64,000 nt of DNA, taken from Candidatus Poribacteria bacterium. GTDB lineage: Bacteria; Poribacteria; WGA-4E; WGA-3G. Where the stretch lies: contig JAJEAG010000059.1 in assembly GCA_022824265.1 (NCBI GenBank), positions 8,736 to 72,735 on the forward strand, given 5' to 3'. The translations under genes were made by a program, and so were the position numbers. Positions 7,087 through 63,755 of this stretch are shown here, one piece after another. Numbering within the stretch: the first letter of the stretch is position 1; each line of letters begins with the position of its first letter. Under the pieces are notes generated by a model. That model saw nothing but the letters and a program-made list of their open reading frames with translations, made no database searches and was not told where the DNA came from.

Positions 7087-7151
7087 GTAGGAGCGATCTC
7101 CGAATCGCGACGATACTCATTGATAGTCGGGAATCGGAGTTCCCAACCTAC
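7087..7151. repeat. Inverted pair of REP-like palindromic elements with a 5' GTAG head (gtaggagcgatctccgaatcgcgac / rc tgtaggttgggaactccgattcccgac)
   Basis: Seen directly. The first unit is identical to 54781-54805. The second unit on the opposite strand has the same GTAGG+stem-loop architecture. Confidence 0.6.
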
Positions 7152-10533: not shown

Positions 10534-10686
10534 ATATCACCTGTTTTCATAGTATAATGCATAAATACACTTCAACAAATTATATCACATCAATGTTTTG
10601 TTGACTACAATCAATTCTATCCTACCAGAGTTATTTATTGCTTCACTTACTGATTCTGATGGGGTTCTATTTATTATACCATTTCT

Positions 10687-10837
10687 AAATAATAACTTCT
10701 CATTAACAAAGCACGCGTTCGTAGTCGCGCAATTCATTGCGCCTCTTACATTAAAGTCTCAAATGTCCTTTTATTGATTAGAATTGGTATTGCATCTATT
10801 ATATATTGTAGGTCGGAGCGAGCTTGCGACCTCCGAC
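10687..10837. repeat. composite intergenic repeat: ~66-bp element (aaataataacttctcattaacaaa..cgcgtt.gtagtcgcgcaattcattgcgcctcttacatt) plus REP-b (gtaggtcggagcgag..cgacct)
   Basis: Near-identical copies at 62618-62675 and 62764-62863. Contains the GTAG motif and palindrome gcgcaat/attgcgc. Confidence 0.55.
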
Positions 10838-10950
10838 ATGTTCTGTCAAAATCACAATAAACACATAACAAACCTTTTCCTTCTGTGTCTTCAGTACCTT
10901 CCGCGATACAGACAATCCGCGTTTCTGGCCACTGAAAACTGAAAACTACC

Positions 10951-11466
10951 CTGAACATACATGAAACATATTGTTCCAATCCACTCAAACCCTTCCATTC
11001 CACATCCACCACCTGTTATAATACTATCTATGAAAAACAAAAACCGAACATACCCACATTCACAACAAAAACCGACACCCGTCACCCAAAAAATGACCAA
11101 AATTCAGGAAATAAAAAACGCACCAAAAATGAAAAATTCAAAATTTCCAAAAACCCCTATAAACCCAGTCCCAGACTGGTAAAACCCCAAATATCAAAAC
11201 GCACCAATGTGCGAAAAACACCCGTTTTTAGTGCGTTTTTAAAAGGAGCAAAAACCGATGAATTTACAACAAAAACACAAACAATTCGCTGTCAGCCCCT
11301 TTAATCTCATTCTAATCGTAGGGGCGAGGTTACCTCGCCCGTCTAATCTGTATTTTCTCTTTATTCGGAATGGGGAACTCCTCCCTATGATTGGAATGTC
11401 CTGTGGGATCAACCCTTCTGCGTCTTCCGCGATTAAGACAGAAAAATCGGCAATTGAATGTCTCTG
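10951..11466. repeat. copy 1 of a ~0.5-0.6 kb duplicated, G-depleted non-coding module (second copy 63034-63646)
   Basis: Long stretches identical or near-identical to 63034-63646. Includes the hairpin aaaacgcac...gtgcgttttt and a conserved short-ORF start with a strong SD. The ORFs 10961..11182 and 11258..11467 are not conserved between the copies. Confidence 0.6.
11318..11341. repeat. REP-like element gtaggggcgaggttacctcgcccg (GTAGG + 6-bp stem around GGTTaCC), inserted within copy 1 of the module
   Basis: Same consensus as 62722-62745 (gtaggggcgaggtttcctcgcccg). Absent from the corresponding position in copy 2, where a different GTAGG element sits instead. Confidence 0.5.
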
Positions 11467-11484: not shown

Positions 11485-11513
11485 TTGACAAAACGGGTTG
11501 TGTATGATAGACT
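11485..11513 (+). promoter_or_regulatory. candidate promoter for glycerate kinase (TTGACA-17 nt-TAGACT)
   Basis: ttgacaaaacgggttgtgtatgatagact ends 7 nt before ATG 11521. This argues against the track's 11485 start. Confidence 0.35.
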
Positions 11514-13102: not shown

Positions 13103-14299
13103 ATGCGATCTGAAATGAACCAAGAAAACTTCAGAAATTCAAGTGCAGGTAGATGTATCCGAAGTATAGGCAGGCACCCATATTGGGCTTTTGTGCCGAA
13201 TCCGCTGCCTCCCAAAATCGAACTGGACTGGGAGTTGATAGACCTACTTTCCAAAGCAGATATCAGACTTGGAAAATTGTCTGGAGCCGGTCAACTACTT
13301 CCAAATCCTCACCTGTTGATCAGTCCGTTTATACGCAGGGAGGCAGTCATGAGTTCCAGAATTGAAAACACACAATCTGGGTTAAAGCAACTATTTTTGT
13401 TTGAGGCAGACCAAACAGAAACACCACGTATTCCCGATGTCCAAGAAGTTCGTAACTACGTTAATGCAATGGAATACGGAATCAAAAGGTTGAAAGACTT
13501 ACCGATGAGTGTAAGGCTTGTTTGTGAAATCCACGAAATACTAATGGAAGGTGTTCGGGGAGAAAATGCAACACCAGGGTTGATGCGGACAAAACAAAAC
13601 TGGATTGGTAAACCCAACTGTACTTTAATGGATGCCACTTATGTTCCTCCCCCAGTACCAGAAATGAGAGACTGCTTTTCTGAATTGGAGAAATATATTC
13701 ATTCCAACACAAAAGAACCAGCTTTGATTCAATGCGCGTTGATCCATTATCAATTTGAGGCTATTCACCCATTTGTTGATGGAAATGGAAGAATCGGCAG
13801 GCTTTTGATTACATTTATGTTAATAGAACGAGGGGTATTGTCACAACCGCTCCTGTATCTCTCTGATTATTTCGAACAACATAGAAATACCTATTATGAA
13901 TTGTTGTTGAATGTGAGTCAAAAAGGTGATTGGAAATCGTGGTTGAAGTTTTTTCTTGATGGTGTGTGTGAACAATCTGAAGATGCACTTTCAACAGTTC
14001 AAAAACTTCTTACATTGAAAGATGAATACACGGAGATTGCAAGGGAACCGAAGGTGTCAAAGACTGTAGCCCAACTAGTTGAGGTATTATTTGGAAAACC
14101 AATTGTATCAATATCAGAATTGATGAGAAGGTGGGATACATCGTTTCCTACGGTTAAACGGGGAGTGGATTATCTTGTTGATAGAGGAAAACTGACAGAA
14201 GTGACAGGAAAACAACGCAACCGTTTATATGCTGCAAATGAAATCCTTGACGTGATTATGACTGAAAGAACAGAAGCACTTAGTAACACAAAGGAATAG
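13103..14299 (+). CDS. Fic family protein (Fic_N + FIC domain, HPFVDGNGRIGR motif)
   Basis: Canonical HxFx(D/E)GNGRxxR motif and an N-terminal YWAFVPNPLPP Fic_N-like region. Confidence 0.85.
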   Translation: MRSEMNQENFRNSSAGRCIRSIGRHPYWAFVPNPLPPKIELDWELIDLLSKADIRLGKLSGAGQLLPNPHLLISPFIRREAVMSSRIENTQSGLKQLFLFEADQTETPRIPDVQEVRNYVNAMEYGIKRLKDLPMSVRLVCEIHEILMEGVRGENATPGLMRTKQNWIGKPNCTLMDATYVPPPVPEMRDCFSELEKYIHSNTKEPALIQCALIHYQFEAIHPFVDGNGRIGRLLITFMLIERGVLSQPLLYLSDYFEQHRNTYYELLLNVSQKGDWKSWLKFFLDGVCEQSEDALSTVQKLLTLKDEYTEIAREPKVSKTVAQLVEVLFGKPIVSISELMRRWDTSFPTVKRGVDYLVDRGKLTEVTGKQRNRLYAANEILDVIMTERTEALSNTKE

Positions 14300-15820: not shown

Positions 15821-16966
15821 ATGAAGATCGCAACTATTGAACAATTTTACCCACGTCGTCGGATGCGTCTCGTTAAGATTACAACAGACACCGGCATCGT
15901 CGGATGGGGTGAAACTACACTTGAAGGTAAACCGAAAAGCACATGGGCAGCAGTTGGAGAACTTGCGGACTATTTTATCGGTAAAGACCCGTTACGTATT
16001 GAACACCACTGGCAGCATGTCTACCGATCCGCCTTTTTCCGAGGTGGTAATATCTTGATGTCCGCCCTATCCGGAATTGATCAAGCACTCTGGGACATTG
16101 CTGGCAAATATCACGGTATACCGACCTACCAACTATTAGGCGGTGCCGTGCGGGACCGAATCCGTGTTTATGCTCATTGGGGCATCGGCAGTTTAACTGA
16201 CGAAGGAAAAGCCGCGGCAAAAGAACGACTTGATTTATTACTACAAAAAGGCGGTTATACAGCGTTTAAAAGTGGTCCCGGTGGCAAATGGCGCGGACAT
16301 GAACCTCCTTCGGTGATCGATGCTTTTGTTGAACGTGCCTATCTGATGCGTGAATGGGTCGGTCCCGATGTTGAACTTGCCTTCGATTTTCATGGGAAAA
16401 TGACACCTGCCCTCGCTATTGAAATTTGCCATGAAATTAAGGGGATGCGACCAATGTTTGTTGAGGAACCTGTACCACAAGAGAATGTTGATGCCTTAAA
16501 ATTAGTGTCCGACCATGTGCCGTTTCCAATTGCGACAGGTGAACGTTTGTTGACCCGATGGGGTTTCCGAGAGGTATTTGAGAAACAGGCTGTCGCGTAC
16601 CTACAACCCGACACCTCTCATGCTGGTGGTATTACAGAACTCAAGAAAATTGCTAACATGGCAGAGGTATATTACATGCATATTGCACCGCATTGTGCGA
16701 TTGGACCGGTTGCTTTCTCTGCCTCCCTTCATGTTGATGCTGTTGTTCCAAACTTCCTAATCCAAGAGCAGATTGATGACGGTTTAGGGGCAGGTCTGTT
16801 TACTGAAAATTGGCAAGTTACAGATGGACACATTGAATTGCCGACGAAACCGGGTCTCGGATTTGAGATTGATAAAAAAGAAGCAGAACAGACACTTGAC
16901 ACCTATCCCGAAGAACTTGGTGGTGAATACTATTACGAAACCGATGGTAGTGTAGCAGATTGGTAA
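15821..16966 (+). CDS. dgoD: D-galactonate dehydratase (enolase superfamily, MR/MLE family)
   Basis: MKIATIEQF...VGWGE...DYFIGKDP...ILMSALSGIDQALWDIAGK...YQLLGG closely matches the recalled DgoD N-terminal consensus. Confidence 0.8.
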   Translation: MKIATIEQFYPRRRMRLVKITTDTGIVGWGETTLEGKPKSTWAAVGELADYFIGKDPLRIEHHWQHVYRSAFFRGGNILMSALSGIDQALWDIAGKYHGIPTYQLLGGAVRDRIRVYAHWGIGSLTDEGKAAAKERLDLLLQKGGYTAFKSGPGGKWRGHEPPSVIDAFVERAYLMREWVGPDVELAFDFHGKMTPALAIEICHEIKGMRPMFVEEPVPQENVDALKLVSDHVPFPIATGERLLTRWGFREVFEKQAVAYLQPDTSHAGGITELKKIANMAEVYYMHIAPHCAIGPVAFSASLHVDAVVPNFLIQEQIDDGLGAGLFTENWQVTDGHIELPTKPGLGFEIDKKEAEQTLDTYPEELGGEYYYETDGSVADW

Positions 16967-62560: not shown

Positions 62561-62863
62561 GTAGGTGCGGTTTCCTAACCGCACCGAGTCCGAAAATCTG
62601 ATTTATCAACTCACGTTAAAATAATAACTTCTCATTAACAAAAAACGCGTTTGTAGTCGCGTAATTCATTGCCAAATCAACGCCAAATGCGCGTATGGCA
62701 TTTGGCACCTCGGACATTATTGTAGGGGCGAGGTTTCCTCGCCCGCATTGTTATACTATTTTTAAATAATAACTTCTCATTAACAAAAAACGCGTTTGTA
62801 GTCGCGCAATTCATTGCGCCTCTTACATTCTCGTAGGTCGGAGCGAGCAAAGCGACCTACGAC
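62561..62863. repeat. cluster of REP-like elements and repeat units (GTAGG-headed palindromes at 62561, 62722, 62833; two copies of the ~66-bp aaataataacttctcattaacaaa.. element; hairpin gccaaatgc-N7-gcatttggc)
   Basis: Seen directly; copies match 10687-10837, 11318-11341 and 12795-12840. Confidence 0.55.
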
Positions 62864-63033
62864 AAGTATTGTGTCTGAATCAAGATTTACAAAATAAGAG
62901 ATTTATATGCCAATGTTCCTATGCAAAAGTTAGCCCTTCATCCTTCACAACGGAATATATACTACAAATTCCTAATCCTGGAAATCCTGAAATCCTGGAA
63001 ATCCTGGTTCAGACAAAAAACTAAACCCAAAAA

Positions 63034-63646
63034 TCTGAAACATACATGAAAACATACATGAAATATATTGTTCCAACTCCCACAACCCCTTTCATCTCTC
63101 TCCACTACCTGTTATAATACGACCACTATGAAACACAAAAACCGCTTACACCCCACATTCACAACAAAAACCGGCACCCGTCACCAAAAAACATCCACCA
63201 AAAACCGACCAAAATTAAGCAAATAAAAAACGCACAAAAAATGAAAAACTCGGAATTTTCAAAAACCCCTATAAACCCAGTCCCAGACTGGCATAACCCC
63301 AAATATCAAAACGCACCAATGTGCAAAAAACACCCGTTTTTTGTGCGTTTTTAGAAGGAGCAAAAATTGATGTATTTACAAGAAAAGCACAAAGAATTCG
63401 CCGTCAGATCTTACGCAAAATTCATGACAAACAATCAAGTCGCGCAAGCATTCATATAAGAATTCTCTTGTAGGAGCGTGGTTTCCCTGTCCATATTATC
63501 CATACTTATCGTATGGTTAGTGTCTCCCTGCTTATTCGCACAGAGAAACCCTCCTTATGATTGTAATGTGCTGTAGAATCAACTCTTTCTGTGTCTTCCA
63601 CGTCTTCCGAGATTCAAACAGAAAAATCGACAATTGAATGGCTCTG
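63034..63646. repeat. copy 2 of the ~0.5-0.6 kb duplicated G-depleted module (first copy 10951-11466)
   Basis: Same order of conserved blocks: catacatgaaa, cctgttataatac, caacaaaaaccg.cacccgtcacc, aaaacgcac..gtgcgttttt hairpin, SD+ATG short ORF, ctcc.tatgatt..aatgt..., cagaaaaatcg.caattgaatg.ctctg. Confidence 0.6.
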
Positions 63647-63663
63647 TATAACTACTAAAAAAA

Positions 63664-63692
63664 GTTGACATCAGTAACTGTACTGTCTATAA
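63664..63692 (+). promoter_or_regulatory. consensus sigma-70 promoter (TTGACA-17 nt-TATAAT) upstream of the 63756 gene
   Basis: ttgacatcagtaactgtactgtctataat. Confidence 0.5.
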
Positions 63693-63755
63693 TACATTAG
63701 GTATTATCAAAACCAGAGGGATGCTGTCCCTTTCTATATTAATAAGTAATAAACA

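Follow-up and report, generated by a model that had tools for sequence, protein, structure and literature searches.

Several bacteria are known to have dispersed families of repeats with genes for small RNAs or with regulatory signals, for example the Sib/QUAD and LDR repeats of Escherichia coli, the Correia elements of Neisseria, BOX elements, and the mosaics formed by bacterial interspersed mosaic elements (BIMEs). The late leader of phage lambda, PR'-6S RNA-tR', has an arrangement of promoter, short RNA and terminator comparable to the one described below, and in phage P4 immunity the CI RNA (seqB) pairs with both seqA and seqC. CrcZ and CrcY of Pseudomonas are CA-rich protein-sponge RNAs, made from a sigma-54/CbrB-dependent promoter and present in one or two copies. 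IsrK of the prophage Gifsy-1 is a small RNA (sRNA) with a read-through isoform, one locus providing both an sRNA and a cis leader (PMC4825925). Here we describe a non-coding cassette of about 340 bases, the module, that occurs twice in a 64,000-nucleotide stretch of a Candidatus Poribacteria contig (JAJEAG010000059.1; the window), in the regions 10951-11466 (copy 1, upstream of a glycerate kinase gene) and 63034-63646 (copy 2, upstream of a secreted-protein gene). The basis of all our claims is computational. We have fairly high confidence that the module is a self-contained unit of predicted promoter, G-poor non-coding RNA and intrinsic terminator that exists in many old, intact copies. With confidence that is roughly even, we favor the interpretation that these copies form a family of independently transcribed small RNAs derived from a phage leader, of which each of the two regions is one dispersed, self-contained unit.

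Elements of this kind, dispersed intergenic repeats carrying a promoter-to-terminator RNA unit, are known; what is new is the combination of an extreme G depletion that is preserved in composition, a terminator arm with two co-evolving partners, apparent descent from the 5' end of a phage gene, and near-uniform orientation towards host genes. As in IsrK, a constitutive-looking promoter is followed by a short RNA with an intrinsic terminator at its end, the ribosome-binding site of the next open reading frame (ORF) is just behind this terminator, a longer read-through isoform is possible, and the origin appears phage-related, the ORF resembling the start of a DUF2280 gene similar to that of a small terminase subunit (TerS). 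The module differs from both IsrK and the lambda leader in having at least 12 solo copies per genome that are detached from any phage, a truncated downstream ORF, no linked Q-like gene, an extremely G-poor leader, and no sequence or Rfam similarity. With P4 immunity it shares one segment that is complementary to two partner copies in the same leader, the three co-varying and being tied to termination. However, the order in the module is two direct boxes followed by their complement, which serves as the terminator's 3' arm; nothing points to processing or action in trans; and the gene context is not P4-like, save for a primase/helicase next to one copy of a variant form (variant B, below). Like CrcZ and CrcY, the module would give a long non-coding RNA that is rich in A and C and for the most part unstructured, and it has its own promoter and intrinsic terminator, but its motif density does not exceed the expectation from its composition, it has no Rfam match, its copies are many and dispersed, and its promoter is sigma-70-like. 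It is intergenic, multi-copy and modular like the repeat families, lies like them beside REP-like elements and in promoter-proximal spacers, and carries a promoter and a terminator; unlike them it has no conserved toxin ORF on either strand and no terminal inverted repeats, and it exceeds REP/BIME units in size and completeness and is related in sequence to none of these families. Neither Rfam 15 nor the literature we searched describes regulatory RNAs for uncultivated Poribacteria. The module is a concrete candidate, with clear predictions of transcript ends that can be checked in existing metatranscriptomes, and it is of wider interest as a phage gene's leader apparently reused as a dispersed host element that nearly always faces the next gene.

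The two window copies belong to a dispersed family

A first-pass annotation of the window, made from its sequence alone, had noticed that the two regions share long identical blocks. They are indeed alike, with a mean column identity of 82% over about 640-720 nt, a 225-nt block at 88%, and identical runs of up to 31 nt. While only two copies were known, the default reading was a simple recent segmental duplication of an intergenic region, without significance. The annotation had proposed that copies be counted and aligned, and doing so reveals a dispersed multi-copy family: we read the DNA of 18 full copies, scattered over unrelated loci of several assemblies (two in the window, 12 in the metagenome-assembled genome (MAG) Candidatus Poribacteria jk18x25bins.18, and four in other assemblies), and aligned 15 copies. 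Copies are 75-91% identical to each other. The window copies are just 86% identical, and copy 2 is closer to a copy in the MAG (L006, 89%; loci outside the window carry L numbers, and public gene calls P numbers). The case that the annotation had named as refuting its idea, that no copies exist beyond these two, clearly does not hold, and we see practically no chance that a plain duplication is the right explanation.

The most conserved block of the module is a 22-mer, exact matches to which occur at nine loci among 185,579 species-representative genomes, all of them in jk18x25bins.18. A nucleotide profile of the family recovered exactly 11 full copies from the window and these nine loci, with E = 6.5e-86 and 1e-95 for the window copies. 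More copies came by an indirect route, in which a profile of the ORF that gene callers place across the module was run against a protein collection. DNA fetched for the ORF matches contained copies in L037 (two), L038-L040, L041, L042 (two) and L043, and the MAG count of at least 12 is made up of the nine 22-mer loci, the two copies in L037 and the one in L041. Copies outside this MAG include some in GCA_022823125.1 and in KELL22-1 metagenome scaffolds. About 36 further called ORFs, found by ORF-profile protein search of NCBI and ENA Poribacteria contigs, run across additional module copies. An exhaustive search of 1.84 billion representative proteins with the ORF profile gave 21 matches, all to this family, and by this indirect, ORF-based measure the family appears to be limited to a narrow Poribacteria lineage. 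A 19-mer scan of JGI metagenomes gave 11 matches, every one by chance, and two scans of viral sequences gave chance matches alone. Rfam 15 at the gathering threshold found four tRNAs and nothing else in the whole window, and E-value searches with both window copies and variant B found noise only (E above 1). The literature that we searched on Poribacteria repeats and non-coding RNAs contained nothing relevant to the module. The first nine MAG copies were picked by the 22-mer, and the apparent conservation of that block is biased accordingly; independently found copies do vary within it. Besides the multi-copy nature of the module, the features that go beyond the first-pass annotation are the TGTTATAAT promoter, a segment (box1) complementary to the 3' arm of the terminator, and the phage-gene likeness of the short ORF.

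Every copy has a predicted extended -10 promoter and a predicted G-poor RNA

All full copies keep a conserved upstream element (alignment consensus CTGAAAACYAC..AAACATACATGAAACATATTGTTCCAAT), located on the + strand, like every module feature given below, at 10939-10980 in copy 1 (CTGAAAACTAC..AACATACATGAAACATATTGTTCCAAT) and at 63034-63077 in copy 2, where ACATACATGAAA is duplicated. We infer that it is a UP element or a factor site. Behind it, every copy carries the extended -10 promoter TGTTATAAT, in which GTTATAATAC is invariant in 15 of 15 aligned copies and the preceding TG is kept in 14 (it is AG in L038). The promoter of copy 1 (10993-11022) consists of a weak -35 hexamer TTCCAT at 10993-10998, TG at 11014-11015 and TATAAT at 11017-11022; that of copy 2 (63090-63118) has a -35-like TTTCAT at 63090-63095, TG at 63110-63111 and TATAAT at 63113-63118. 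Several copies have the -35 hexamer TTCACA at a distance of 17 nt, and two of these–L003 and L037b, the orthologue of copy 1 in the MAG–score 11/12 with TG in a promoter scan (TTCACA-17-TATAAT), whereas the window copies miss the cut-off of the scan because of the -35 hexamer alone. The family thus has the sequence of a sigma-70 extended -10 promoter (TGnTATAAT plus a plausible -35 hexamer at 17-18 nt), whose activity is predicted. Directly after the promoter, CTATGAAA is invariant; a role for it as a promoter-proximal pause element is speculation.

The upstream element and promoter would start an RNA of about 205-260 nt, with 8-12% G across copies. Placing its start about 7 nt past the -10 box and its end at the U-tract of the terminator, we predict a ~211-nt RNA from copy 1 (11028-11240) and a ~227-nt RNA from copy 2 (63124-63352). 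The depletion of G on the + strand, which had been described before, is borne out by counting: the two module regions have 11 and 12 G per 200 nt compared to a window median of 41, and nowhere else in the window is the count as low as 14 or below. Base composition is 0.41-0.46 A, 0.27-0.30 C and 0.09-0.10 G in the window copies, and 0.46 A, 0.27 C, 0.10 G and 0.17 U in the copy 1 RNA. The first ~100-150 nt of the RNA are nearly G-free (about 73% A+C) and therefore unable to fold. RNAalifold predicts no structure in the first ~155 columns of the alignment, and thereafter only a small hairpin and the terminator. What is conserved in this single-stranded 5' arm is composition and not sequence. 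Neither AANAANAA motifs above background nor homology, as expected of a CrcZ-like sponge, were found: AANAANAA-type motifs are ~30 times as frequent as in the remaining window and number 2.9 per RNA versus 1.8 in composition-matched shuffles, and AANAANAA, ARN and YC motifs show no enrichment over composition. A-tract phasing, as a sign of DNA curvature, had no consistent ~10.5-bp period.

The CA-rich part had been thought probably non-coding on the grounds that its ORF (10961..11182) is not conserved in copy 2. Comparison across the copies confirms that this ORF is not conserved, and the non-coding assignment holds up: the synonymous share of differences is 0.2-0.36 and alike in all six frames, there is no third-position excess, and pN/pS (the ratio of non-synonymous to synonymous polymorphism) is about 0.9 (0.67-1.11) in the open 75-codon frames discussed below. 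These three grounds led us to reject a coding role for the CA-rich part in either strand. A type I toxin encoded by hydrophobic-looking minus-strand frames was likewise rejected as a composition artefact. These frames hold stops in several copies and lack a coding signature, and the conserved small hydrophobic ORF that marks a type I toxin-antitoxin repeat of the LDR/Sib kind, overlapped by an antisense RNA, is not present.

We also weighed a translated frame of about 75 codons, which would run from a near-leaderless ATG right behind the promoter through the terminator to a TAG and be either the gene of a very basic, K/N/T/P-rich small protein or a leader ORF whose translation controls the terminator. 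Its ATG is conserved in all copies; in 9 of 15 the distance from ATG to TAG is divisible by 3, in 7 of 15 the frame stays open, and the stop codon overlaps the Shine-Dalgarno (SD) sequence of the next ORF. The public gene calls P0121-P0171 contain, in many assemblies, an ORF of exactly 75 amino acids (MKNKNR...PINPVPDW...PFLVRF) across the module. However, a pN/pS of about 0.9 makes these calls most likely spurious, and intact frames are over-represented among them because the search used the ORF. The frame has no SD upstream of its ATG, suffers frequent 1-nt indels in A-runs, and is broken in 8 of 15 copies, including copy 1, although the orthologue L037b is intact. We retain translation of this frame, as a very improbable explanation, because of the multiple-of-3 length and the overlap between stop and SD.

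The 3' arm of the terminator has two co-evolving partners

The nested hairpin with a U-run that the first-pass annotation had described is present at 11196-11240 and 63308-63352, where it has the form of an intrinsic terminator. Its arms are box2 (consensus AAAACGNACC; 11196-11205 in copy 1 and 63308-63317 in copy 2) and the complementary box3 (GGUN'CGUUUUU, ending in the U-tract; 11231-11240 and 63343-63352, each then with U5), and an AAAAAC/GUUUUU hairpin is nested inside the stem. All copies have a 14-pair stem with U5-6 behind it and a predicted free energy of -11.8 to -19.9 kcal/mol (-11.8 kcal/mol in copy 1); a simple terminator scan missed the stem only because the loop exceeds 8 nt. 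Box2 and box3 would terminate the transcript intrinsically at the U5-6. The covariation analysis that had been suggested for this hairpin shows that the stem is kept by compensatory substitutions: 95% of cells in the box2:box3 helix are paired across the aligned copies, the variable pair is A-U in five copies, C-G in five and U-A in five, and two further pairs have changed on both sides, making three in total. As a control, sliding box2 against box3 by 1-3 columns gave pairing at 27-49% only.

A further segment, box1 (consensus AAAAAACGNACCAAAA), lies 80-105 nt upstream, at 11113-11129 in copy 1 (AAAAAACGCACCAAAAA) and 63225-63241 in copy 2 (AAAAAACGCACAAAAAA). Its sequence equals that of box2 and changes along with it through four allelic states (CGCAC, CGAAC, CGUAC and GAUAC), so box3 has two alternative partners. 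In copy 1, box1 forms an inverted repeat with 11225-11240 (16 nt, 94% complementary), and in copy 2 with 63337-63352 (16 nt, 100%). Across 15 copies, 95% of the box1:box3 helix is paired, and the variable pair is A-U in five, C-G in five, U-A in four and mismatched in one. Among 20 further copies read from ORF calls, the variable base of box1 and box2 agrees in 19; the exceptions to box agreement, L004, L042c and P0121, look like recombinants. In variant B, represented by L042 9904-10265 and L043 9993-10349, the promoter and 5' leader are kept and all three boxes have been replaced together (AAAAGATACA / UGUAUCUUUU), box1 and box2 being AAAAGAUACA and box3 UUUUGUAUCUUUUUU. With pairing forced in folding, box1:box3 gave the minimum free energy structure in 8 of 16 copies, both window copies among them, and box2 of the window copies then forms a small hairpin of its own (CGCAC-CAAU-GUGCG). 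The box1:box3 pairing would close a 3' domain of ~130 nt, to which the fold z-score of copy 1 (-4.8) is due. Box1 might serve the terminator as a spare 5' arm, form a helix that closes the domain post-transcriptionally, or provide a type-specific address for pairing in trans, comparable to P4 immunity.

A more far-reaching idea is that a phage immunity or late-gene circuit left behind the three boxes as a type-specific RNA switch, with the abundant terminated RNA of one box type acting in trans on modules of the same type. We rate this as quite improbable. If it were true, an RNA of the same type would, via free box1/box2 or box3, set the balance between termination and read-through of nascent transcripts, and a dozen or more unrelated host genes would belong to several parallel regulons that are addressed by sequence and have a domesticated phage leader as their building block. 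A leader-peptide attenuator, which had been among the first suggestions for this locus, does not fit: its ORF is the frame described above that is open in 7 of 15 copies with pN/pS ~0.9, the G-poor leader forms no antiterminator, and the alternative box1:box3 helix uses the same 3' arm as the terminator.

Between box1 and box2 the window copies share an identical block (CCTATAAACCCAGTCCCAGACTGG, 11156-11179 in copy 1) that contains a possible hairpin, CCAGUC-CCA-GACUGG, at 11165-11179 and 63277-63291. We rejected this hairpin as a core structure because variant B has lost it and covariation is not seen. Its changes in the independently found copies L041, L037a, L037b and L038 are uncompensated, and we treat it as a conserved sequence block and not as a proven structure.

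The module ends in a truncated gene start, probably of phage type

Behind box3 follow AGAAGGAGC, an A-rich spacer and an ATG. Nearly all copies keep AGAAGGAG and the ATG, and the ORF that begins there has 1 to 69 codons. The SD and ATG reported behind the hairpin are located at 11243-11260 and 63355-63372. In copy 1 (11243-11296), AAGGAG at 11243-11248 precedes an ATG at 11258 and the conserved first 13 codons MNLQQKHKQFAVS; in copy 2 (63355-63459), AAGGAG at 63355-63360 precedes a 29-codon ORF at 63370-63459 (MYLQEKHKEFAVRSYAKFMTNNQVAQAFI). As had also been seen, the two short ORFs (69 amino acids in copy 1 and 29 in copy 2) have their first 12-13 codons in common and diverge at REP elements. 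These are GTAGG hairpins: one at 11318-11341 interrupts the ORF of copy 1, which extends to 11467 through REP-derived sequence, and one at 63470-63492 lies right behind the ORF of copy 2. The continuation MYLQEKHKQFAVKSYAKFMTNKQVAQAFI(KEFP) is common to copy 2, L006, L041 and P0157-P0161.

By profile search, the short-ORF peptide matches the N-terminus of the Pfam family DUF2280 (PF10045) in register, with E = 0.05 for copy 2 and 0.004 for longer copies. The best score, 17.7 bits, is under the curated cut-off of 24 bits, and that match covers only profile positions 4-33 of 103 (4-34 over all matches). It also has a sub-threshold, in-register match to phrog_546 (E = 0.005-0.03). In a prophage of Acinetobacter, the gene for a DUF2280 protein immediately precedes that for the terminase large subunit (PMC7760358), which is where a small terminase subunit has its place. 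Since the match recurs consistently, in register and N-terminal, we take the peptide for a fragment of a gene's 5' end rather than for a family member; the 29-codon ORF of copy 2 is probably a 5' fragment of a DUF2280/TerS-like gene. A search for a full-length gene behind the SD and ATG found five ORFs, all of them truncated past ~28-33 shared residues. The ancestor of the module would then be a phage-type gene, of which the promoter, leader, terminator and ~30 initial codons were kept. In this scenario the cassette originally belonged to a phage or mobile-element operon, and it spread, or was spread by recombination among mosaic repeats, to the promoter-proximal spacers of unrelated host genes.

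Old, intact copies inserted among other repeats

Despite the divergence among copies, nearly all have an intact -10 box, U-tract, paired boxes and SD, so these old copies are not decaying. Conservation is strongly uneven along the module, unlike the neutral decay of a dead repeat. Copy 1 can be compared to orthologous sites, as it lies in the spacer between the PhyH and glycerate kinase (glxK) genes. In the closely related MAG this spacer has 91-95% identity to that of the window, including the orthologous module L037b. Within the module, window positions 10939-11112, comprising the promoter-proximal part and the 5' leader, are only 75-80% identical to L037 ~16190-16370, with 23 gap columns, whereas the part from box1 to the terminator is 92% identical. 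This pattern suggests either gene conversion or overwriting by a paralogue, or else unusually fast change of the leader.

Two other loci, L030 and L032, whose glycerate kinases are 94-95% identical, also carry the module upstream of glxK. Both of their contigs start inside the module terminator (L030 at 1-49 and L032 at 1-55); short-read contigs that start within the module indicate that the repeat breaks assemblies. Four more distant relatives (protein identity 82-87%) differ at this site. In L033 and L036 the PhyH-glxK spacer is a compact 140 nt, with the same glxK promoter and without the module, compared to ~0.9-1 kb for the occupied spacers in the window, L030, L032 and L037. That promoter, TTGACA-17-TAGACT at 11485-11513 in the window, is the glycerate kinase gene's own; it lies outside the module and is kept in the empty-site relative L033. 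L031 has an extra gene in the spacer. In L034 (8997-10000) the spacer is ~1 kb and holds other repeats instead, for example GGGTTTCGCTATCGCTCTACCC hairpins, and the PhyH-glxK spacer seems to collect repeats. Because the empty site occurs in more distant relatives, the module and its neighboring repeats are an insertion in this lineage, and because the insertion is an island of several repeats, it did not arise in one clean event. In practical terms the module disrupts short-read assemblies, seeds spurious 75-aa ORF calls, and marks insertion-prone promoter spacers.

These observations bear on whether the module is a selfish or neutral mosaic repeat, similar to a BIME or to a miniature inverted-repeat transposable element (MITE), whose hairpins are kept as DNA by mobilization and recombination or by quasi-palindrome template switching, and whose promoter is a passenger. 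It is embedded in islands of GTAGG REP-like, (AATCCTG)n and 82-nt repeats, its boundaries are ragged and mosaic, there are mosaic or recombinant copies (L004, L042c, P0121, and variant I/II middle segments), the orthologous 5' half appears to have been overwritten, and the family is restricted to a narrow lineage. As in a MITE, presence or absence of the element is polymorphic at orthologous sites. However, we found no terminal inverted repeats, target duplications or linked transposase, the only inverted repeats being the internal box1:box3 and box2:box3, and neither the preservation of the -10 box, U-tract and SD in old copies nor the strongly uneven conservation is what neutral decay would produce. 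We consider a selfish or neutral repeat unlikely. The earlier idea of a mobile-element remnant is supported in so far as the module is dispersed, has an empty site and carries an outward SD and ATG, but the lack of terminal repeats and target duplications, and the intact state of the copies, do not agree with it.

Co-orientation with the next gene

The module and the next downstream gene have the same orientation at 15 of 16 distinct loci (one-sided binomial probability 2.6e-4), and none of the copies lies between convergent genes. The downstream genes are unrelated, and include genes for glycerate kinase, a secreted protein, GroEL, sulfatases and a TonB-dependent receptor, among others. They begin 156-1039 nt behind the terminator, and several have their own near-consensus promoters in between; for example, the secreted-protein gene has TTGACA-17-TATAAT (12/12) at 63665-63693, outside the module.

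According to the main rival of the small-RNA interpretation, the module could be a cis-acting cassette that serves as a conditionally terminated upstream promoter for the co-oriented next gene, its copies forming a regulon, with read-through set by a processive antiterminator similar to phage Q, by Rho loading on the C-rich, G-poor leader, or by an RNA occupying box1/box2. Beyond the co-orientation and the absence from convergent spacers, such a cassette would account for the retention of an SD and ATG right behind the terminator, for derivation from the 5' end of a gene, for the two alternative partners of box3, and for a leader in which composition is conserved and sequence is not, as in a Rho-utilization site. 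On the other hand, the downstream genes are distant and have promoters of their own, with REP hairpins lying between, the leader is unable to form a cis antiterminator, box3 stays paired next to the U-tract in both alternative helices, and no antiterminator gene is linked (we saw no Q-like gene adjoining any copy). We regard the cis-acting cassette as a serious possibility, though a minority one.

The small-RNA interpretation is favored because the promoter and terminator are the best-kept parts, because the layout is that of an sRNA, and because downstream genes have their own promoters. The layout consists of a predicted single-stranded 5' arm followed by a 3' hairpin with a U-tail. Of the possibilities that the first-pass annotation had listed, a candidate sRNA is the one best supported, by the invariant extended -10 box, the lack of a coding signal and the covarying terminator. 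Each copy would make a terminated small RNA whose working part is the single-stranded CA-rich 5' arm, and this arm might pair with G/U-rich targets or be bound by a protein with affinity for A/C-rich RNA. A minority of transcripts would read through to the co-oriented downstream gene. Several points weigh against this interpretation. The -35 hexamer is weak in both window copies. The G-poor stretch begins ~70 nt before the predicted transcription start and so cannot be ascribed to the RNA alone. Any 'seed' would lie in the 5' leader, and no part of the module is less conserved than this leader (75-80% between orthologues, versus 91-95% in the flanks). A-rich motifs are not above the expectation from composition-matched shuffles. 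The compensatory changes fall into few allelic classes, and could partly reflect subfamily descent or hairpin-templated DNA repair. Finally, a gene for a purely trans-acting sRNA needs neither a retained SD and ATG nor a strong co-orientation.

Other repeats and genes near the modules

Both window copies are embedded in islands of other short repeats. Downstream of the short ORF, a shared 3' block extends over 11380-11466 (ending in AAAAATCGGCAATTGAATGTCTCTG) and aligns with 63550-63646 (ending in AAAAATCGACAATTGAATGGCTCTG); its end motif also trails short versions of the module in L001, L007, L008 and L038. The motif at this end, AAAAATCGNCAATTGAATGNCTCTG, is located at 11446-11466 and 63626-63646, and is also found in L008, L038 and L037. 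The promoter that belongs to the downstream gene has its -35 box 10-35 nt further on, and the motif could be a factor-binding or UP-like site.

On the 5' side, copy 2 is abutted by a heptamer-repeat module, (AATCCTG)n-GGTTCAGAC, at 62982-63013 (+ strand), which belongs to a separate repeat family. Members of this family, (AATCCTG)n-GGTTCAGAC(A) with 2 to 5 repeats, mostly abut the 5' side of the CA-rich module. Solo copies occur as well, for example at positions 681, 6044, 6167 and 6700 of L006, 265 and 418 of L007, and 5825 of L002. REP-like GTAGG hairpins are present in the window at 7087, 10808, 11318, 54781, 62561, 62722, 62833 and 63470. They comprise at least three subfamilies and are clustered around both modules, where they are on the plus strand; two of them truncate the short ORFs. 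An 82-nt repeat (AATAATAACTTCTCATTAACAAA..CGCGTTYGTAGTCGCGCAATTCATTGCGCC) is found at 10671-10752, 62603-62684 and 62748-62829 in the window, with more copies in L002, L007 and L037. It has a terminator-like hairpin on the minus strand and yields a spurious ORF, MNCATTNA....

In L043 (7298-16720) the variant-B copy lies just downstream of a primase/helicase-like gene (BT4734-like_N, PriCT_2, DUF3987), with ParA-like and RHH antitoxin-like genes nearby, and the neighborhood looks like a mobile element. At the glycerate kinase locus, the window (13103-14299) and L030 have a Fic-domain gene behind glycerate kinase. L031, L033, L034, L036 and L037 (the MAG) lack it at this position and have a sulfatase gene there directly; the Fic-domain gene is a second lineage-specific insertion at the locus.

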